A stretch of 64,000 nucleotides of DNA from an uncultured Bacilli bacterium. GTDB taxonomy: Bacteria > Bacillota_I > Bacilli_A > RF39 > UBA660. Below the pieces are notes generated by a model, which ran no database searches, was not told the origin of the DNA, and saw only the letters and a program-made list of their open reading frames with translations. The DNA is taken from NCBI GenBank assembly GCA_944350485.1, contig CALVPE010000074.1:13989-77988 (forward strand). The letters run 5' to 3'. Both the position numbers and the translations under genes were made by a program. Positions 1,266 to 51,688 of the stretch are shown one piece after another. Each line of letters begins with the position of its first letter. Positions within the stretch are counted from its first letter, which is position 1.

Positions 1266-2561
1266 TTATTTTTTTTCTATCTCTTTAATGTAATCAAAAA
1301 CACTATCCGAAAATCCAGATATATGTATATATCCTTGCTTGTAACCAACACCCCTTTGACAAGTTGAGACATTTATGATATAACTTTTTTCTGTCATTGC
1401 ATTTGGAATGGTATCTGATGTTTGTTCGTCTGTTATAATAATAATTCTATCATATTTAGTTTTTTTGTTAATAGAATTTAATGATTCTCCTAAATTTGTT
1501 CCCCAATGTCCTTGAGAATAATTTATAGCATCTCTTAAAGCAAATCCCCTTCTACTAGGAACTAATTTTTCTATTTGACTAAAAGTCCAAATTTCAACAT
1601 ATTCACTAATTTCTCTACCTATCATAGCTAATGAACAAGCATAATCTAAACAAGAAAATTTACTATTTTTTGAAGTACATTCCATAGAACCAGATACATC
1701 AACCAAAATAAGTGTTTTTCCAGAAATTTTATCTTTATTTTTACTCATATTTTTTAAAAATACTTTTTCTATTTCACTTTCAAAATTTGGATTCATAATA
1801 CCGGCTCTTATATAGTCAATAGGTAATAGCTTGTTTAAAGATATTTTTGATATTCTATCTTTTATTAATTTTTTATCAACACCACTTCTTGAAATTCCAG
1901 CAATATTTTTTAAGAAAGCCATATCAGGTATTTTATTTTTTAGAAGTAATTTTTCCCAAGCATTCTTCTTTTTTTCTATATCACTTCCAGCTTCTGATAT
2001 TAATACTTCCCATGTTTCTGGTGTTTTTAATGTTCCATTCATTAGTTTATTTATTGCTTCTGTTGGTTTTGGATGACATAAATTAGCAATATCTACCAAA
2101 TTATATTCTGCTTTTCTATTCCATTTTGCTAATTGAAATTCATCAAATTTAGTAAAAGCTTTTGCTAAACCTTTTTTAATTGAATTTGAAAGAGAATAAT
2201 TATTAGTTTTATATAAAGCTAAAAGCTCTCCCATGTCATCTGGCCTAGTTACAATTTCTTCAATTAAATCTTTTAAACCAGTTACACCTTTTGCTAATAA
2301 ACAACTAATCATATATAATGGGCAATGTCTAAGTTTCATATCAAACTTAGCTTTTTTAATTAAATCTATTATTTTTTGATTATCATTTATTGAATTTATG
2401 AGTGTTTGTATTCTTTCTGAAACTGATATTCCATTTTCATAAAAGCCATCTTCCCATAATAAACAAGCACAAACTGTTCTTTCAAGTTCTTCAAAAGCAT
2501 TTATTTTTGAAGCCTTACCATTTTCATAAGTAGTTAAAGTATTTTTTTTGTTTTTTTTCAT
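1266..2561 (-). CDS. Ro60/Rsr-like protein: TROVE-like N-terminal region plus C-terminal von Willebrand A domain
   Basis: C-terminal vWA MIDAS motif LILVDVSGSM...IIIITDEQT. N-terminal ...RTVCACLLWEDGFYENG...LPIDYIRAGI... parallels Ro60 FLCFGSEGGTYY.../...IHPFHILIAL.../LLAVDVSASM by eye. Confidence 0.55.
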   Translation of the reverse strand: MKKNKKNTLTTYENGKASKINAFEELERTVCACLLWEDGFYENGISVSERIQTLINSINDNQKIIDLIKKAKFDMKLRHCPLYMISCLLAKGVTGLKDLIEEIVTRPDDMGELLALYKTNNYSLSNSIKKGLAKAFTKFDEFQLAKWNRKAEYNLVDIANLCHPKPTEAINKLMNGTLKTPETWEVLISEAGSDIEKKKNAWEKLLLKNKIPDMAFLKNIAGISRSGVDKKLIKDRISKISLNKLLPIDYIRAGIMNPNFESEIEKVFLKNMSKNKDKISGKTLILVDVSGSMECTSKNSKFSCLDYACSLAMIGREISEYVEIWTFSQIEKLVPSRRGFALRDAINYSQGHWGTNLGESLNSINKKTKYDRIIIITDEQTSDTIPNAMTEKSYIINVSTCQRGVGYKQGYIHISGFSDSVFDYIKEIEKK

Positions 2562-7837: not shown

Positions 7838-8314
7838 CTATTTTTTACCTTTATTTACCTTTTCAAGATTTTTTAAATATAAATATTTTTGTTTTCTTAA
7901 TTCTTTTTGTTTTTTTAAAATATTTTTTTCATATTCAGTTTTTTCCCTTTTTATTTTAGGCTTATGAATTAAATTTTTATTTTTTGTATTAATAGTTATT
8001 TTTTTTCCAGAAAGTTCCTGATATTTATTAATCATAAATTCATCAATAGTCAATATATTATCTTGTAAAAAATCTTTAATATTATTTGTATTATTAATTA
8101 TTTCTGGTTCTTTTAAAAAACCATCATGTATTTTTCTATGACAACACATACAAACTGGCAATATATTTTTTTCATCCCAGCGATATAATAAATTTGCTCT
8201 TCTAATTATATGATGACCTACAACATTTTTTGTAGTTCCACAATAATAACATCGTTTTTTACTAGCTCTTTCTTGTATTATTTGATCTAATTTTTTCATT
8301 AAATTTTTATTCAT
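7838..8314 (-). CDS. HNH endonuclease
   Basis: CYYCG...VGHHIIRR...CMCCHRKIH (Cys4 plus HNH). Confidence 0.8.
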   Translation of the reverse strand: MNKNLMKKLDQIIQERASKKRCYYCGTTKNVVGHHIIRRANLLYRWDEKNILPVCMCCHRKIHDGFLKEPEIINNTNNIKDFLQDNILTIDEFMINKYQELSGKKITINTKNKNLIHKPKIKREKTEYEKNILKKQKELRKQKYLYLKNLEKVNKGKK

Positions 8315-8321
8315 AATATTC

Positions 8322-10511
8322 CTATTTTTTGCATTTCCATGAAAATAAAGCTTTTCCAGTAATAATATTTCCGGTAACTCTATTTATTAAACAATCTTTA
8401 AATCCTTCTTCTTTTGCTAATATATAATCTTCTGCTTTTCCAAATTTATCATAAGTTTTTGTACAGTCAACAAAAATTGGTTTTTTACCTTCTTGAAATC
8501 TTACAAGTCTTCCAACAGATTGTATTAACAAAGACAAAGACATCATTTGTCTAGCATTTATTATACAATCTAAACTAGGGCAATCAAAACCAATATTTAA
8601 AGCATTAACATTAACTAATATTTGTTTATTATTATTTTTAAATTTTTCAATTATTTCTTGTCTTTGTTTTTTAGGTGTATCTCCATAAATTTCCATAACT
8701 TCGTAACTCTTTTTTCTTAAAGTATCACATATTATATTAGCTTGTTGTTTACAACTAGTTATTATAAGAATCTTATTTTTTATAGGAAAAAATTCTTCAA
8801 CTGCTTTTATTGTATTATCTATTCTATCTTGTCTAGTAGTATATTTAACTATACTTTCTTCCGTATAATCACATCCTGTTGAATTTACTTGTAATTGTGA
8901 CAAATCAAAACCATTACTATAATCTATATATTCTGGTTTCATAATATAACCAGCTTCCATTAAATCCTTTAATTCCATTTTATAAACAATAGATCCAAAG
9001 AAAAATGGATGAATACGATTTAACATCATTAGAGAACCTGTATAGTATTTTTCACCACCATCATAACAAAATCTATTTACAAGACGATACGGGGTAGCGG
9101 AAAAAGAAAGTACTCGACTACATTTTATTTCTCCAAAAAATTTTGAATACATACCATTTGTATTTTGAGGATTTACTGTATGACAATTACCAGAAATAAA
9201 AGTCAATCCATCACTTCTAACTACTATTTTATGATTTGGGACTTCTACACAATAAACGTAATTATTATAATCTTGGATTATTTGTTTATTCGCTGCCTGC
9301 AAACTTCTATAATCGCTATCAAAAAAAATTACTCTATATAAAGTTTTTCTATTGTCGCCTCTTTCTCTTTGCTCCATTACTGTTCTATATCCAGCTTGTG
9401 TAGCTATTGCATTAACAAAATCTACATTATCTTTTATAATAGAAGAATAACTTTTTGGCATTTCATTTTTTCTAGTTCCATCCCATAAACATATTTCTTC
9501 TATAAAATCTCTTGCTCTATCATACCCCATATTTATATTAAAACATTTAGATAAATATTTTGCTCGTTTATTTAAAAAATCATTACCTAATAAAATATGC
9601 CATGCTTCATATCCTTCTCTTGTTATATTTAATTGTTTAATATTTGTCATGTTTTTTGTTAATAATTTCCATCTATCTTTTTTTCTTTGTTTTTTTAAAG
9701 AAATACTATAACGACCAACATCTTTTTTATTACGGTTAAAACTAACTGAACCATCAGCTTGTAAAGCAACCAAGACTCTTTCAAAATCTGTAAGTAAAAC
9801 ATTATTTCCTGTCCCCTTTCCTGCACAAATAAGTTGATTTTTACTAGAAGCACTATGTCCGACTGTTAAATCTTTTACTAAACAATTATTTATTGTATAT
9901 TTGTCCGAACTAATTTTTCTTCTATAAACTTGATTATGATTTGGCGTCATTAAGCAACCTCTGATATTTTTATAATTAGAGAAATTTATTTTTATCATTT
10001 CACCATTATGCTTCCTTTTTATGTATCTCAATGGTTTCACAAATTCTATTTTACCATCATCATATTGCGCAACTAATTCTGTTTGGTCTAAATCTTTAAA
10101 TTTTTTAAAACCTCTATCAGTTAATATTTCTACACCACCATCAAAACACTCATCTATTATGCAATTTTTTACATCTTTAAATAATTCTGGATGTTTATAT
10201 GCAGATTGTATAGTAGAAAATATAACATTTTTATCTGTTTCTTTTCTGTCTTTTCCAGCAGAAAAAACACTAGCTTCATAACCATAACTTTCATATTTAG
10301 ATAAATTTTGTTCTAATATTTCTTGTGATGGTTGAAATACTATTGTTTTATCTTGTAATTCTTTTGCTATATTTGCTATTACTATTGACTTTCCAAAAGC
10401 TGTACATGCTTGCATTATAATTGGTTTTTTAGAATTTTGTAAATAGTATAAGCCAGTTTTAACAGCAACTTTTTGATATTCTCTTAATTGTATCATTTTT
10501 TTTCTTTCCAA
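8322..10511 (-). CDS. SF2 DNA helicase (DECH box) interrupted by an intein
   Basis: Walker A QACTAFGKS, motif II IIDE|...|CHT, motif III LSFSATP. A 321-aa insertion lies exactly inside the DECH box. Confidence 0.75.
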   Translation of the reverse strand: MERKKMIQLREYQKVAVKTGLYYLQNSKKPIIMQACTAFGKSIVIANIAKELQDKTIVFQPSQEILEQNLSKYESYGYEASVFSAGKDRKETDKNVIFSTIQSAYKHPELFKDVKNCIIDECFDGGVEILTDRGFKKFKDLDQTELVAQYDDGKIEFVKPLRYIKRKHNGEMIKINFSNYKNIRGCLMTPNHNQVYRRKISSDKYTINNCLVKDLTVGHSASSKNQLICAGKGTGNNVLLTDFERVLVALQADGSVSFNRNKKDVGRYSISLKKQRKKDRWKLLTKNMTNIKQLNITREGYEAWHILLGNDFLNKRAKYLSKCFNINMGYDRARDFIEEICLWDGTRKNEMPKSYSSIIKDNVDFVNAIATQAGYRTVMEQRERGDNRKTLYRVIFFDSDYRSLQAANKQIIQDYNNYVYCVEVPNHKIVVRSDGLTFISGNCHTVNPQNTNGMYSKFFGEIKCSRVLSFSATPYRLVNRFCYDGGEKYYTGSLMMLNRIHPFFFGSIVYKMELKDLMEAGYIMKPEYIDYSNGFDLSQLQVNSTGCDYTEESIVKYTTRQDRIDNTIKAVEEFFPIKNKILIITSCKQQANIICDTLRKKSYEVMEIYGDTPKKQRQEIIEKFKNNNKQILVNVNALNIGFDCPSLDCIINARQMMSLSLLIQSVGRLVRFQEGKKPIFVDCTKTYDKFGKAEDYILAKEEGFKDCLINRVTGNIITGKALFSWKCKK
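9186..10148 (-). other. Intein (321 aa) with LAGLIDADG homing-endonuclease domain, inserted in helicase motif II
   Basis: Begins at C of CFDGGVEILTDRG and ends ...FISGN followed by +1 Cys of CHTV. Block B has T..H in CLMTPNHNQ, the LAGLIDADG-like motif is VLVALQADGSVS, and block F is YVYCVEVPNHK. Excision restores IIDECHTV. The penultimate residue is Gly rather than His. Confidence 0.7.
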
Positions 10512-21532: not shown

Positions 21533-22153
21533 ATGACAATATTAATAAAAAATAGATTTAATAATTTATCAATGGATAATTTAATAATTAATGATTATAA
21601 TAAAAATTTAATTACATATTTAAAAGATTATAAAAAAAATATTGAAGAAAAAATAAATAATTACGAAAATATTATTTTAACTGGAAGTGTTGGAAGTGGA
21701 AAAACTTTTATTATGAGAAGTTTTTTTAATGATATCCAAAAAATTAAAATTAAAAGACAAAAAAGTTTTTATTATAATCAAATAGAAGAAGAAGATTATA
21801 TTTCTTCTATGTATGTAAATATGTATGATTTAATAAATGAATTAAGAAAAGAATATAAAGGTGAACATGTTGATAGTTTATTATTTACATGTGATTTGTT
21901 ATTTATTGATGAAATAGGTATACAATTTTGTACAGATGCAGAAAGACAAATACTTTTTAAATTAATAAATTATAGATATGAAAATTTTAAACCAATATTT
22001 TTAATTTCAAATCATCCTTTAAGGTCCACCAATGAAATTAAAGGTCTTTATTATATTTTAGGTGATAGAATAATGGATAGAATTTGTGATTGTAATTGTA
22101 AAGTATTTTGTTTTAATAATATAGAATCAATGAGAAAAAAATGTTTGAAATAA
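21533..22153 (+). CDS. DnaC/IstB-like helicase loader ATPase
   Basis: Walker A GSVGSGKT and Walker B LLFIDEIG. Confidence 0.7.
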   Translation: MTILIKNRFNNLSMDNLIINDYNKNLITYLKDYKKNIEEKINNYENIILTGSVGSGKTFIMRSFFNDIQKIKIKRQKSFYYNQIEEEDYISSMYVNMYDLINELRKEYKGEHVDSLLFTCDLLFIDEIGIQFCTDAERQILFKLINYRYENFKPIFLISNHPLRSTNEIKGLYYILGDRIMDRICDCNCKVFCFNNIESMRKKCLK

Positions 22154-24180
22154 AATTATATGATATTGAATGTGAACAAGTATTATTAGGATGTTTAATA
22201 TTAAATTCTGAAACATATTTTAAAATAAATTCAATAATAAAAAGTGAGTATTTTTTTGAAAGTGCTCATAAAGATATTTTTATTTTACTAAAAAATTTTT
22301 ATGAAAATGATAAGGTACAAGATTTAAAATCATTATCAGGCGAAATAAAAAATATTTTAAGAAAACATCATTATACAGATGATTATTTAAAATGCTTATT
22401 AAATATGGGAGCAGGAATAATTGATGTAGAAAGTTATTGTAATATAATTAAAAATTTTTATTTAAAAAGACAATTGAAAGATTTAGAAGAAAAAATTGAA
22501 TTAGAAATTAAAAAAAATACTAAAGCAGAAGATATATATGATAAAATAAAAAACAATTTAGAAAATATAGGAGAACAATCAAAAGAAGAACAATATACTT
22601 TTGATAATGCTATGGATATATGTGCTAAAAGAATATTGGATATAGAAAATACTATTAATAATAAAAATGAACCTGATAATATTATAAAAACTAATATTAT
22701 AGATTTTGATAGAAAGTTAGGTGGAATTTTTAGAAAAAAATTATTTGTTTTAGCTGGAAGGAGTTCGTCGGGAAAAGCGTTACCATTAGATACTAAAATA
22801 TTAACTAATAAAGGATGGATAAAAAATAAAAATATTAAAATAGGTGATAAAGTTATTGATCCATTTGGTAAAGAAGTTGTAGTTAATGGTGTTTTTCCAC
22901 AAGGAAGAAGAAGATGTTATAAAATATTTTTTGAAGATAGAATTATAGAAGCGGATAAAAATCATTTATGGGAGATATTTTTTGAAGATGAAATAGAACC
23001 AAAAATATTAAGCACTAAACAAATATATAAAATATTAAAAGATAAAAAAAATAATAAAAAGTTATGTATAAGGCTTTTTTGTGGAAAATATGGGCTTAAT
23101 AATAATAAAAGTATTTTATTTAAAAAATATGAAGCTAGAAAAAATTTTTTATTTAATTATCTTAATAAAAGAAAATATGAAATAAAAAGTTATAAAAAAT
23201 CTTTAATATTGCAACAATTAGCTTTTAGTTTAGGCATGAAGTGCCATATTATTTTTGATAAAATAAATAAAATATATAAAATAGATATTTATAAAAATAT
23301 TTCTAAAAAATTATATATTAATAAAATAGAAAAATCAAATTTTAAACATACACAATGTATTAGTGTTGATAGTAATGAACATCTCTATGTAATTCAAGAC
23401 TATATTGTTACTCATAATACTACACTTTCTTTACAAATTGCATTAAATGTAGCTAAACAAAATAAAAATGTTTTATTTTTTTCACAAGAAATGTGTTCTG
23501 AAGAGCAGGGAGATAAAATATTATCTAATGTTGCACAAATTAATTCTTCAAATATAAGAAAATCAGATGTTACTTATGAACAAATACAAAAAATGAAAAA
23601 TAATATGGAAGAAATAAATAAATTACCATTATATTTTAATGAAAAGTTAGGTATTAGTGGTGATTATGTAAGAAATGTTATTAAAAATTTTGAAAAAAAA
23701 GTCGGTAAAATTGATTTAGTTATTATAGATCACTTGCAAATAATGAGAACAGAAGATAATCAAAATAATAGGGTATTAGCTCTTGATAAATTATCTATGG
23801 ATTGTAAAAATATAGCAAAAGAATTTGATTGTGGCATGATATTGTTAAGTCAATTATCAAGAAAAACAGAAGAAAGAGATGATCCACGACCACAATTATC
23901 CGATTTAAGAGAAAGTGGTGGTATTGAACAAAATGCGGATGTTGTAGTTTTTATTTATCGGGAAGCTTATTATACAGAAAGAAAACTAAATGGGTTATTA
24001 GAAACAGATCCAAGATTCACTAGTTTATCTAATCAATTGAAAACTCAAAAAAATCAAGCAGATTTAATAATACAAAAAGATAGGGGGGGAAATTTAGGAA
24101 ATATAAAATTATATTTTGTCCCTGAATTTTCTTATTTTTCCGATATATATACTAAATATCTAGAAGATGCAAAAAAATAA
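22141..24180 (+). CDS. dnaB: Replicative DNA helicase DnaB interrupted by an intein in the P-loop
   Basis: N-terminal ECEQVLLGCLILNSE. P-loop LAGRSSSGK|...|TTLSLQIALNVA split by a 214-aa insert. C-terminal ...IIDHLQIM...ESGGIEQNADVVVFIYRE. Confidence 0.85.
   Translation: MFEIKLYDIECEQVLLGCLILNSETYFKINSIIKSEYFFESAHKDIFILLKNFYENDKVQDLKSLSGEIKNILRKHHYTDDYLKCLLNMGAGIIDVESYCNIIKNFYLKRQLKDLEEKIELEIKKNTKAEDIYDKIKNNLENIGEQSKEEQYTFDNAMDICAKRILDIENTINNKNEPDNIIKTNIIDFDRKLGGIFRKKLFVLAGRSSSGKALPLDTKILTNKGWIKNKNIKIGDKVIDPFGKEVVVNGVFPQGRRRCYKIFFEDRIIEADKNHLWEIFFEDEIEPKILSTKQIYKILKDKKNNKKLCIRLFCGKYGLNNNKSILFKKYEARKNFLFNYLNKRKYEIKSYKKSLILQQLAFSLGMKCHIIFDKINKIYKIDIYKNISKKLYINKIEKSNFKHTQCISVDSNEHLYVIQDYIVTHNTTLSLQIALNVAKQNKNVLFFSQEMCSEEQGDKILSNVAQINSSNIRKSDVTYEQIQKMKNNMEEINKLPLYFNEKLGISGDYVRNVIKNFEKKVGKIDLVIIDHLQIMRTEDNQNNRVLALDKLSMDCKNIAKEFDCGMILLSQLSRKTEERDDPRPQLSDLRESGGIEQNADVVVFIYREAYYTERKLNGLLETDPRFTSLSNQLKTQKNQADLIIQKDRGGNLGNIKLYFVPEFSYFSDIYTKYLEDAKK
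22777..23418 (+). other. Intein (214 aa) in the DnaB Walker A motif. It has a non-nucleophilic Ala1, ends ...VTHN, and the +1 residue is Thr
   Basis: Starts ALPLDTKILTNKGW (block A), ends ...DYIVTHN|TT. Excision gives GRSSSGKTTLSLQ. Ala at position 1 plus Cys in block F (TQCISVD) suggests a class 2/3-type intein. Its size leaves room for only a reduced endonuclease domain. Confidence 0.75.
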
Positions 24181-48894: not shown

Positions 48895-49122
48895 TTATTT
48901 TTTACTTATTATTAAAACAGAAATTATAAAAAATATAAACATTAGAGAATATTTTAAAATATCAAAATATGTACTTGCATTTAATAAAAAAAATGGTGTA
49001 TAAATCATACATGCAACACAAATAATAATACATATATTGCTAATATTTTCTAATATTTTTATTATAATATTTTTTAAAAAAAGATAAAATTTATTTAAAA
49101 TCATTGATATTTTTTTAAACAT
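48895..49122 (-). CDS. small hydrophobic protein between terminase and portal
   Basis: Two TM-like segments. Confidence 0.3.
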   Translation of the reverse strand: MFKKISMILNKFYLFLKNIIIKILENISNICIIICVACMIYTPFFLLNASTYFDILKYSLMFIFFIISVLIISKK

Positions 49123-51688
49123 AACTTATATTTATTCTCCTTTGTTTAGTTTTATTAAAATAATTTCTAGCCCAATTAATTACTTGTGATAAAGAATCAA
49201 CTGCATCATCATGTACACTATCATTTTTGCTAGGAAATACATTTAATTCTCTCTCTATTTCTTTTATAACATATATTTGTTTTTTGTCAAGTCTAGTAAT
49301 TTTATTATATTCTTTTGGAAAAAATACTCTACCATTATTTATTTCAAGGGAACATGATTTTGCTCTATCTTCTTTTGATAATTTTGGAGAAAAACAAATA
49401 ACAATTTTATTTTTTCTAGGATCTTTTTTTTCTAATAAACCACCATATATTAATATTTCAAGTTCATTAATAATTTCATAACCACTACTTTTTTCTTCAA
49501 CTATTATAAAGTCTGGTTGATATTCAATATACCAATCAATAACTCTTCTAACAAACAATGGTGTTTTTTCTTGTGTTAAACTAGCTTCTAAAAGATATGA
49601 TTGTAATTCTTTTCTTTTTGTAATATTATTTGTATAAGTATTAAATCCCCATAATTGCATTGATTGATAATCATTTTCTCCATTAGATGAATCTATTGAA
49701 ATAACTCTTTTTTCAAAAATAATATCTTTTATATTATCATTAGTATATTTATTAATACAATTTATATTAAATATTTTTGTATCTTCTTCTTCACATTTTT
49801 GAAACATTTGCCATTGAAAATCAATATCATTGTTTATTAAGTTTCTATGAAGTTCAAATCTATTATCATCAAATTTATCTGGAAATATAAAATCTCCATT
49901 TTTGACAAACCATTTTCTATAAGGACTAATAAAATATTTTCCAGATAATAATTTATTATTTTTTGCATCATAATATTCTTCTACTTGATTTTCTATTTTT
50001 GCAGGTATTTCTATATGTTTCCATTTGGAACTGTTAGGAAGTCTTAATAAATATCCAGTTGTGTCATTTTCTGCTATTCTTTGCATACAAATGATTAATG
50101 GAGCTTCGGAACCTATTATACCCCTATCCCTTGTAATACAACCACTTACAATTTCATTCATTTTTGTTAAATAAGTATCTTTTTCTGTTTTAAATCTAGT
50201 ATAATCATTTGGATCATCAAAAATTGTAAAATCAGAATCGGTACCTGTTATATTACCTTGCATTGTTTTTATTGTAATACTACCACCACCTTCTATTTGT
50301 TCTCCATAATTAAATTTTTCTAAGAAAAATACTTCTTCTGTATTTTTTTGATTTTTATCTATTTTAACTTGTGGAAATAATTGTTGATAATAATCAGAAT
50401 TTAATATTTCTTTAATATGTCTAACATATTTATTTCTAACGGTATCAGCACCGGAAATAATTAAAAATCTAGTATGTGGAAAAAATCCAATATAAAGACA
50501 TACAAAAGATATTAAACTATTGGTATTATGGCAAACTGTATAATTATCAAGTAAATATAAATGATTACCATCTAATTCAAAACCATAATATTTATCATAT
50601 CCCATGCTTTCAATATTAAATTTTTGTAAAGATAAATATATAGGATTATCTTTAAAATGATTTTTTTTATTTTTTAATGATATTTTTTCTATATTACCAT
50701 GAATATATATTTTATAAAATTGTTTATTTTTAATAAATTTTGTATACTTTTTTGTATAAAATCCTAAACTTCTTGATAAATCAATTATAAAATTTGTTTT
50801 TTCTAAATTATTGCAAATTATTTCAATTTCATTATTTGATTTTATAAATCCCCTTCCATCAACTATTCCGGATAATAGTTTTAATCTTATATCTTCATTA
50901 TTAAAAATATAATCATTTAAAAATTCTTTATTTTTTTCTATTTTATCTAATATTTTAAATTTCTTATTATTAAAAAATTTATTATTTAGTTTATTTAATT
51001 CTATTGTATGTAATGTTTTATTTTTATTTGATAAATATAAACCAACAAAATAAGGATTTATATCTACTTTTTTATATTTATAAAGTATCTTATTTTTTAC
51101 CATTCTATGATTTTTTTTAAAATCTTCATCTTGTTTTAAATAGTCATCAACAGTGATTTTAATAAAATTTTTATCATTTATATTATATAAATATAAAATA
51201 TGTTCTTTATTACAAGTAAATTGTGTATCATCATCCATAGTAATTTTATACATATTAGAATAACTACTTCCTAATGATATGACATTTCTAGGAGTACTAT
51301 CATCTCCCATTATTTTATCTCCTATTACTATGTCTTCAACTTTTTTTAAAGTTCCATCATACATTCTTATTAATGTACCTTTACCATGACATTTACCATG
51401 TCCAGGTGGAATATTAATAATTAAAAATTTATTTCTTTTTTCTAAAATTTCTTTTAAAAAATCAAAATAATACTTAAAATACCAATTAAATTTAAAATTT
51501 ACTTGCGGTTCACATATTCTACAACATATTTCATGAAACAGAACCATATTATTTATTAACCAGTAATAATCTGGATAAAAATTACCATTTTCATCAACTT
51601 CTAATGTTATATTATCAGTTATTCTTTTAGAAAAAACTGTTTTATAATATTCTAATGTATTTTTTTTATTTTCTAACTCAGAAGTCAT
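49115..51688 (-). CDS. terminase large subunit interrupted by an intein in the ATPase P-loop
   Basis: NIPPGHGK|...|TNSLISF reconstitutes the Walker A motif PPGHGKT after removal of a 289-aa insert. The C-terminal nuclease-like region includes FIIVEEKSSG and DDAVDSLSQ. Confidence 0.8.
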   Translation of the reverse strand: MTSELENKKNTLEYYKTVFSKRITDNITLEVDENGNFYPDYYWLINNMVLFHEICCRICEPQVNFKFNWYFKYYFDFLKEILEKRNKFLIINIPPGHGKCHGKGTLIRMYDGTLKKVEDIVIGDKIMGDDSTPRNVISLGSSYSNMYKITMDDDTQFTCNKEHILYLYNINDKNFIKITVDDYLKQDEDFKKNHRMVKNKILYKYKKVDINPYFVGLYLSNKNKTLHTIELNKLNNKFFNNKKFKILDKIEKNKEFLNDYIFNNEDIRLKLLSGIVDGRGFIKSNNEIEIICNNLEKTNFIIDLSRSLGFYTKKYTKFIKNKQFYKIYIHGNIEKISLKNKKNHFKDNPIYLSLQKFNIESMGYDKYYGFELDGNHLYLLDNYTVCHNTNSLISFVCLYIGFFPHTRFLIISGADTVRNKYVRHIKEILNSDYYQQLFPQVKIDKNQKNTEEVFFLEKFNYGEQIEGGGSITIKTMQGNITGTDSDFTIFDDPNDYTRFKTEKDTYLTKMNEIVSGCITRDRGIIGSEAPLIICMQRIAENDTTGYLLRLPNSSKWKHIEIPAKIENQVEEYYDAKNNKLLSGKYFISPYRKWFVKNGDFIFPDKFDDNRFELHRNLINNDIDFQWQMFQKCEEEDTKIFNINCINKYTNDNIKDIIFEKRVISIDSSNGENDYQSMQLWGFNTYTNNITKRKELQSYLLEASLTQEKTPLFVRRVIDWYIEYQPDFIIVEEKSSGYEIINELEILIYGGLLEKKDPRKNKIVICFSPKLSKEDRAKSCSLEINNGRVFFPKEYNKITRLDKKQIYVIKEIERELNVFPSKNDSVHDDAVDSLSQVINWARNYFNKTKQRRINISYV
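50525..51391 (-). other. Intein (289 aa) with LAGLIDADG homing-endonuclease domain in the terminase Walker A motif
   Basis: Cys1 at CHGKGTLIRMYDGTL (block A). Block B T..H in FTCNKEH. Two LAGLIDADG-like motifs (YFVGLYLSNKNK and LSGIVDGRGF). Block F YGFELDGNHLYLL. Terminal TVCHN with +1 Thr. Confidence 0.8.

Follow-up and report, generated by a model that had tools for sequence, protein, structure and literature searches.

The 64,000-nucleotide stretch of DNA analysed here (the window) comes from an uncultured Bacilli bacterium (GenBank assembly GCA_944350485.1, contig CALVPE010000074.1, positions 13,989 to 77,988 of the forward strand). On its minus strand lies a phage gene for the large subunit of the terminase (TerL), followed by a small open reading frame (ORF) and then by a portal gene (Pfam Phage_portal, E=1.3e-47). 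The terminase reading frame is interrupted within its ATPase domain by an in-frame insert (Table 1). This insert is a real class 1 intein which splits the Walker A motif of TerL, and the evidence for this lies far beyond chance. An earlier note, made from the sequence of this DNA, had proposed a 289-residue intein in the Walker A motif of the large terminase. That proposal is borne out by a full-length profile match, by likeness to PI-SceI in both sequence and structure, and by natural TerL alleles which are empty at the site.

The insert begins CHGKGTLIRMYDG at Cys100 of the precursor and ends TVCHN at Asn388; PPGHGK ends at residue 99 on one side and Thr389 opens TNSLISF on the other. The point of insertion thus falls between the lysine and the threonine of Walker A (PPGHGK/C...HN/TNSLISF, where slashes mark the junctions). 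Deletion of the insert in silico gives ...NIPPGHGK-TNSLISF..., and the spliced site reads CCTGGACATGGTAAA/ACCAATAGTTTA at the level of the DNA. Every string quoted in the earlier note, including the terminal TVCHN and the +1 threonine, is found in the TerL ORF, and its expectation that splicing would restore GHGKT is in keeping with the uninterrupted P-loops of two naturally intein-free homologues, P0007 and P0121.

The Pfam model Hom_end_hint (PF05203), derived from inteins like PI-SceI, aligns over its whole length (profile positions 1-228 of 228) with residues 1-288 of the insert, with an E-value of 6.3e-19 and a score of 69.3 bits against a cut-off of 32.1. In a phmmer search of the PDB, the top solved relatives of the insert are PI-SceI/VMA1 entries (E=2e-11), and the alignment with the PI-SceI sequence spans the N-terminal block, the C-terminal YYG...HN blocks and the second LAGLIDADG motif. 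An AlphaFold2 (AF2) model of the intein, computed on a 59-sequence family alignment (A2), has a mean predicted local distance difference test score (pLDDT) of 90.3 and a predicted template modelling score (pTM) of 0.88, the HINT residues reaching a pLDDT of 95-98. When this model was compared with known structures by Foldseek, PI-SceI (1dfa) came first (E=9.9e-22; template modelling score 0.78, normalised to the query), followed by the TliVMA, Prp8, PI-PfuI and gp41-1 inteins and by hedgehog Hint domains. As modelled, the insert has the HINT fold of a class 1 intein.

The splicing residues are all present, namely Cys1, Asn61 and His64 of block B, the terminal pair His288-Asn289, and Thr+1. The five which belong to the intein itself are invariant in A2, whilst the +1 residue is threonine or serine in all TerL alleles, being threonine in the window and serine in P0003-P0006. 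Block B reads N61-K-E-H64, and NxxH is the state found in inteins of the PI-SceI type. Taken with the modelled fold, this inventory of residues predicts that the window intein splices itself out of the precursor. A group I intron and a free-standing endonuclease gene were considered as identities for the insert and rejected, since the reading frame passes through it unbroken and its termini are of the HINT type.

Two features of the intein ends may be recorded here. A 9-nucleotide direct repeat lies across the junction of N-extein and intein (CATGGTAAA, then TGT and CATGGTAAA again), so that HGK of the extein recurs at once in the intein, at residues 2-4 (C-HGK-G). Since the family has CHGKGT as its consensus, the repeat may reflect this conserved N-terminus rather than a duplication. 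At the other end, Cys287 of TVCHN is replaced by threonine or serine in relatives; it is a speculative suggestion that this cysteine could pair with Cys1 and so make splicing, and hence packaging, conditional on redox state.

The precursor matches the PHROG family phrog_38, 'terminase large subunit', in two stretches (E=5.8e-52, 178.3 bits). With the insert removed in silico, TerL matches the same family in a single stretch over residues 51-561, with a score of 204.8 bits and an E-value of 5.6e-60. Pfam Terminase_6C is also matched by spliced TerL, albeit weakly and under Pfam's cut-off (E=0.0044). A phmmer search of the PDB with the spliced extein returned only chance antibody matches, and the fold and the position of the P-loop were therefore checked on P0007, a homologue naturally free of the intein, for which an AF2 model was computed. 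This model is of moderate confidence overall (pLDDT 70.6), with values of 74-91 in the ATPase core. Its top structural match is the TerL of PhiV-1 (8dgc_E, E=4.5e-16), and the next matches are all large terminases, those of T4 (gp17), D6E, HK97, T7, Sf6 and P74-26. At the insertion site a beta strand (residues 87-92, LIINV) leads into the loop SPGHG (93-97) and from there into a helix (98-112) which starts at Lys98. In the model this strand, P-loop and helix topology is the Walker A arrangement. A further strand (197-201) carries at its end the invariant Asp201-Asp202 of Walker B, for which the likely counterpart in the C-extein of the window, assigned by eye, is DFTIFDDP. On the modelled structure, the host protein is a phage large terminase, comprising a P-loop ATPase and a C-terminal nuclease.

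A homologue search over 5.8 billion proteins uncovered a small TerL clade of nine members, seven of which carry the insert. P0001 (857 residues) is 98% identical to the window TerL, and P0002-P0006 (831-905 residues) are 53-63% identical. The intein-free members are P0007 (567 residues) and P0121 (568 residues). Alignment with such intein-less homologues was the check put forward in the earlier note, which would have yielded to evidence of a conserved terminase domain. The gap in P0007 comprises exactly the intein columns (SPGHGK/SSCLMSF), and P0121 reads PPGHGK/SSTLMSF at the same place. The distant terminases P0122-P0124 and P0126-P0128 (477-524 residues) are likewise without the insert.

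P0003 and P0007 form a close filled and empty pair, with exteins that are 99% identical and a 338-residue intein present in the former and absent from the latter. At the nucleotide level, the empty gene of L002 (1622..3325) and the filled gene of L003 (941..3658) differ at 60 of 1704 extein positions, which fall in 58 codons, 55 of them synonymous. Seven of these differences, all synonymous and including a TCC/AGT switch of serine codon, lie within 10 nucleotides on either side of the insertion point (P ~0.0015 for any 20-nucleotide window; never reached at this particular point in 100,000 permutations). Co-conversion, or selection under homing pressure for an empty site resistant to cleavage, would produce such a cluster, although this recoding concerns relatives with an intact nuclease and not the window copy. 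For the window itself, the intein differs from that of the 98%-identical L001 synonymously in 25 and non-synonymously in 11 of its 289 codons, as against 33 and 8 respectively among the 568 codons of the exteins. Because synonymous changes are in excess, these counts, which are of codon differences only, suggest that the intein is still under purifying selection, albeit looser than that on the exteins. The phage group of the window harbours a further class of mobile element: in L004 (10..3618) and L005 (1923..3834), genes of the IS200/IS605 type for TnpA (Y1_Tnp) and TnpB (OrfB_IS605 / Cas12f-like) lie within a few kilobases of TerL.

Table 1. Features of the window discussed in the text; positions count from the first nucleotide of the window and slashes mark intein junctions
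Feature	Positions	Strand	Remarks
TerL precursor ORF	49115..51688	-	857 aa, ~101.9 kDa; uninterrupted in the six-frame ORF list
N-extein (aa 1-99)	51392..51688	-	Closes with strand beta1 and the start of Walker A: ...FLIINIPPGHGK
Class 1 intein, PI-SceI/VMA1-like	50525..51391	-	289 aa, ~34.3 kDa; CHGKGT...TVCHN; precursor aa 100-388
Degenerate LAGLIDADG endonuclease region	50660..51076	-	Intein aa 106-244; from family alignment and AF2 model
C-extein (aa 389-857)	49118..50524	-	Starts at Thr+1 (TNSLISF...); likely Walker B and RNase H-like nuclease domain
Direct repeat at N-extein/intein junction	51380..51400	-	9 nt
Hydrophobic ORF between TerL and portal genes	48895..49122	-	75 aa
DnaB helicase with 214-aa intein	22141..24180	+	Intein aa 213-426; GRSSSGK/ALPLDT...IVTHN/TTLSL, at Walker A GK/T
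SF2 helicase with 321-aa insert	8322..10511	-	Insert aa 129-449; IIDE/CFDGG...FISGN/CHT, splits the DExH box (motif II)
HNH-like ORF	7838..8314	-	phrog_7370 HNH, 2.3e-7; phrog_5034 NinG/Rap junction endonuclease, 2.3e-6; just downstream of the SF2 helicase
Ro60-like protein	1266..2561	-	TROVE and Ro60 vWA domains

The earlier note had called the element a LAGLIDADG intein, which holds in so far as both motifs can be recognised, however neither retains a catalytic acidic residue and the domain is a remnant. Motif 1 reads FVGLYLSNK, with Asn122 at the catalytic position, and motif 2 reads LLSGIVDGRG, with Arg180 there. The corresponding family motifs are DPYxLGLWLGDG and LLAGLIDSDG, and in A2 the catalytic columns hold aspartate in 47 and 45 of 58 relatives respectively. 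The profile searches which had been suggested as a check gave a divided answer: PF05203 is matched over its full length, as described above, but neither of the endonuclease models Hom_end (PF05204) and LAGLIDADG_3 (PF14528) matches the intein at E<=1. Most relatives carry one or both of these domains. In the AF2 model both LAGLIDADG helices are kept (residues 113-121 and 166-180), and the second half-domain forms a full alpha-beta-beta-alpha-beta-beta unit, with strands at 181-185, 188-193, 212-220 and 223-231. Between the two helices there are low-confidence helices and no beta strand (pLDDT 52-61 for residues 121-150). Alignment with P0003 shows that the first half-domain has lost some 50 residues, and at 289 residues the whole intein falls short of the family median of 336. 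The modelled window intein thus lacks half of the DNA-binding saddle, and its endonuclease is very probably dead.

Within the TerL clade, decay has been uneven both along the intein and between lineages. The endonuclease part shows 38% identity with 19% gapped positions, compared with 57% and 62% identity for the two HINT parts and 66-69% for the exteins. The deletions and substitutions in the endonuclease part vary among the lineages, and P0003 is the only member of the clade to have kept both GDG and DSDG. P0006 has acidic residues at both catalytic positions (EG, DGDP), with proline replacing the final glycine. This is the pattern expected late in a homing cycle, when an element is near fixation (here seven of nine alleles), its nuclease is decaying and an essential host gene keeps splicing in place. 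The locus thus offers a natural example of this later stage, with the splicing domain maintained and the endonuclease decaying differently in each lineage.

Beyond the TerL clade, hundreds of proteins share the intein only. Of 119 related inteins with located junctions, 106 lie at GK/T or GK/S of Walker A and another 12 occupy other points of the P-loop (for example G/SGK), the remaining junction having been mis-located. Judged by their Pfam domains, the hosts include ClpA/B-type proteins, DnaB, SNF2 and other superfamily 2 (SF2) helicases, RecA, Lon and D5-like primase-helicases; an annotated phage example is the 'intein-containing helicase' of Salmonella Jersey-like phages. Among these P-loop inteins, P0013-P0120 (in DnaB at site b, ClpA/B-type proteins, SNF2, RecA and Lon) belong to the same family as the window intein and occupy the same GK/T or GK/S site. 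Those aligned share 32-43% identity with the whole window intein, rising to 46-51% over the HINT part among the closest, and the strongly conserved family ends, CHGKGTKI...GDFTVTHN, are shared as well. They differ from the window copy in their exteins, and in most of them the GDG and DSDG motifs are preserved and the domain is of full size, with a length of about 336 residues.

The seven inteins of the TerL clade are monophyletic in a neighbour-joining tree of HINT columns, albeit with bootstrap support of only 118 out of 200. Similarities of intein and extein are discordant. The window and P0002 are 74% identical over the exteins and 49% over the HINT part of the intein, while P0002 and P0003 are 66% identical over the exteins and 77% over HINT. 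On account of this discordance, the history of the intein within the clade appears not to have been purely vertical, and intein exchange or replacement between TerL lineages is suggested.

The explanation which best accommodates these observations, and which is very probably correct, is that the gene encodes a TerL precursor with a class 1 PI-SceI-like intein between the lysine and threonine of Walker A, predicted to splice, and that decay of its endonuclease has left the intein an immobile passenger. After translation, the HINT domain would excise itself by the standard four steps. An N-S acyl shift at Cys1 would be followed by transfer of the thioester to Thr+1; Asn289 would then cyclise with the help of His288, and an O-N shift would form the peptide bond. 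The products would be a 568-residue TerL (~67.5 kDa) with an intact GHGKT P-loop and a free intein of ~34 kDa. In the unspliced precursor the insert parts the P-loop from the helix that follows, so that ATP should not be bound, and splicing would then be obligatory for DNA packaging. The intein is likely to have descended from a large family of homing inteins targeting the DNA which encodes the GK/T or GK/S site of many P-loop ATPases. In the window lineage the LAGLIDADG domain would have decayed, both catalytic aspartates being lost and half of the saddle missing. The element would now most likely be a vertically inherited passenger, unable to move and persisting only because it still splices.

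Some observations sit less comfortably with this explanation. Threonine is a rarer +1 nucleophile than cysteine or serine, and block B has NxxH and not TxxH, yet the latter feature is shared with PI-SceI and is invariant in the family. Loss of the catalytic aspartates predicts that cleavage has been lost, without proving it. Moreover, the HINT part of the window intein is 48-55% identical to other inteins of the TerL clade and 46-51% identical to inteins of unrelated ATPases. The other TerL-clade inteins share 58-81% HINT identity, making the window copy the most divergent member. This divergence could stem from accelerated decay which also touches splicing, or from an independent invasion of the site. 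A doubtful elaboration of the second possibility holds that the PI-SceI-like family is one lineage of 'P-loop specialists', which would have moved repeatedly among TerL, DnaB, ClpA/B-type proteins, SNF2, RecA and Lon by way of the short DNA coding for GKT or GKS, with the window copy having invaded the TerL site independently, or replaced an earlier intein there, and not having come down vertically; the redox pairing of Cys1 and Cys287 would be a further, speculative layer. An invasion of this kind would explain why the window HINT domain is no closer to TerL inteins than to those of unrelated ATPases.

It has also to be considered that the intein may still be mobile, its remnant nuclease cleaving or nicking DNA, or working with a helper nuclease, so that co-infection would let it spread to empty TerL alleles. 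The second half-domain and both LAGLIDADG helices are kept and modelled with confidence, the discordant identities of the P0002/P0003 and window/P0002 pairs point to horizontal movement in the past, and the synonymous cluster of L002 and L003 fits homing pressure or co-conversion. These signs of mobility, however, concern relatives, among which P0003 has intact GDG and DSDG motifs. The catalytic positions of the window copy are non-acidic (N122 and R180), its first half-domain has no beta-sheet and it has no LAGLIDADG match in Pfam, all of which make present mobility unlikely. More improbable still is that the insert represents a non-splicing HINT domain, a bacterial-intein-like domain or a decayed intein, with TerL either inactive or working with the insert in place. 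Besides the divergence of the window intein within its clade, such a view could draw on the enrichment of the intein in lysine (14.5%) and asparagine (11.8%) brought about by an AT-rich genome, and on a non-synonymous rate some 2.7 times that of the exteins in the comparison with L001. Against this, every class 1 splicing residue is present and family-invariant, the HINT part is modelled at high confidence, and synonymous differences outnumber non-synonymous ones in the intein (25 versus 11). A TerL which kept its insert should not bind ATP, with its P-loop split from the helix, and no other terminase-like gene was seen among the annotated ORFs of the window, albeit with no systematic scan of the window for one. 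Finally, the idea that the insert is a native conserved domain of the terminase has been rejected and has next to no chance of being correct. Although carried by most of the TerL clade, the insert is precisely absent from P0007 and P0121 and absent from the distant terminases, it recurs in the unrelated ClpA/B-type, DnaB, SNF2, RecA and Lon proteins, and its fold is that of a HINT domain with a LAGLIDADG region.

Inteins in the P-loops of terminases have been described before (Kelley et al. 2016; Novikova et al. 2016), and the element is a well-documented one and the find ordinary. The rarity implied by the earlier note does not stand, as TerL heads the list of intein hosts reported from actinobacteriophages. 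In mycobacteriophages it is the most frequent intein host, and the P-loop position between lysine and threonine has been called a 'classic' intein insertion point (Kelley et al. 2016, mBio, PMC5050341). TerL inteins at sites b, c, e, f and g splice and those at b and c cut DNA, site a being unassayed, and it has been argued that TerL intein splicing is needed for assembly of the pentamer (PMC5050341). A second study lists 22 Terminase_6 prophage inteins from Firmicutes, Fusobacteria and Proteobacteria, and underlines that inteins have hot spots in the P-loops of many ATPases (Novikova et al. 2016, MBE, PMC4760082, Table 3). A survey from 2025 puts TerL inteins at 293 of the nearly 800 which it counts in actinobacteriophages, and covers both degraded endonuclease domains and 'extein switching' via shared nucleotide-binding motifs (bioRxiv 10.1101/2025.01.02.630785).

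The closest parallel by site is with the TerL1-a inteins of mycobacteriophages, which like the window intein lie between the invariant lysine of Walker A and the nucleophilic threonine. Their hosts are Terminase_1 proteins of actinobacteriophages, whereas the window TerL is phrog_38 / Terminase_6C-like and comes from an uncultivated phage whose G+C (guanine plus cytosine) content is 22%, and in this comparison the window intein is set apart by its decayed endonuclease domain. PI-SceI, from VMA1 of Saccharomyces cerevisiae, has in common with the window intein the Hom_end_hint architecture, an Asn/His block B, the YYG...HN blocks and a host which is the catalytic subunit of an ATPase. It is however a protein of 454 residues with an active two-half LAGLIDADG domain (D218 and D326) and an extra DNA-recognition region, whereas the window intein has 289 residues, asparagine and arginine at the equivalent positions, and has lost its first beta-sheet. 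Host protein and insertion site also differ, and the +1 residue is cysteine in VMA1 and threonine in the window. The Terminase_6 prophage inteins resemble the window case by host family, in that their hosts are large terminases whose nuclease domain is of the Terminase_6 type, to which the window TerL is only weakly similar. The window intein fits the known picture of TerL inteins, differing only in terminase family and phage group.

Current understanding is not changed by this locus, as splicing and homing of TerL inteins have already been shown experimentally in mycobacteriophages. Its value lies mainly in alleles that are cleanly filled, decayed or empty, among them P0003 and P0007 as a close pair with a recoded target site, and in the presence of three mutually unrelated inteins within one phage window. 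For annotation, the true TerL would be the 568-residue spliced product, whereas to gene callers and family models the terminase looks split or oversized. The spliced sequence is the proper input for phylogeny and for inferring the mechanism of packaging.

Two further inserts in the window, in a DnaB helicase and an SF2 helicase, had likewise been taken for inteins in ATPase motifs, and the comparisons agree, placing one at GK/T of Walker A and the other in motif II, the DExH box. The top solved match of the DnaB intein is the gp41-1 intein engineered to class 3 (6riz, with C1A, F65W and D107C; E=7e-8), and mycobacterial DnaB inteins come next, among them the class 3 intein of M. smegmatis (6bs8). 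The DnaB intein itself starts with alanine, has tryptophan and cysteine at the positions mutated in 6riz and threonine before the terminal His-Asn, and looks like a natural class 3 intein. The insert of the SF2 helicase has glycine in place of the penultimate histidine and cysteine at +1. It matches Pfam Intein_splicing weakly (E=0.0045) and intein-bearing PHROGs more strongly (ribonucleotide reductase, 4.9e-25; PhoH, 1e-14), and phage homologues of the helicase lack the insert and match in two pieces. That the three inteins are copies of one another was considered and rejected, with pairwise BLASTP E-values all at least 0.01. They represent three independent acquisitions, although those in TerL and DnaB have come to occupy the same kind of site.

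The HNH-like ORF adjoining the SF2 helicase had been counted as one more homing element, a description which is not justified by its matches. It scores about equally as an HNH protein and as a NinG/Rap junction endonuclease in PHROG, and in Pfam both NinG (0.0016) and HNH (0.0022) fall under the cut-off. In Bacteroides phage BS-TP2, a distant intein-free homologue of the helicase has HNH and NinG/Rap genes just upstream.

The exact protein sequence of the window TerL is not on record, and a megablast search with the TerL gene found no match among 50,697 phage records. Pattern scans for relatives, in IMG/VR with P0007 and in GTDB genomes with the portal protein, found none. At the sensitivity used, the phage group thus appears to have no representative among GenBank phages, in IMG/VR or in GTDB genomes. 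An ARAGORN scan found no tRNA. The G+C content is 22.3% for the window, 19.9% and 23.3% for the exteins and 17.4% for the intein; in so AT-rich a region, this low value indicates that the insert has adopted the composition of the genome. The hydrophobic ORF between the TerL and portal genes overlaps the TerL stop codon by 8 nucleotides, and an ORF of matching size and position is kept in L001, L004 and L005. Elsewhere in the window there is a gene for a Ro60-like protein, which matches phrog_850, 'RNA-binding protein', with an E-value of 1.9e-29.

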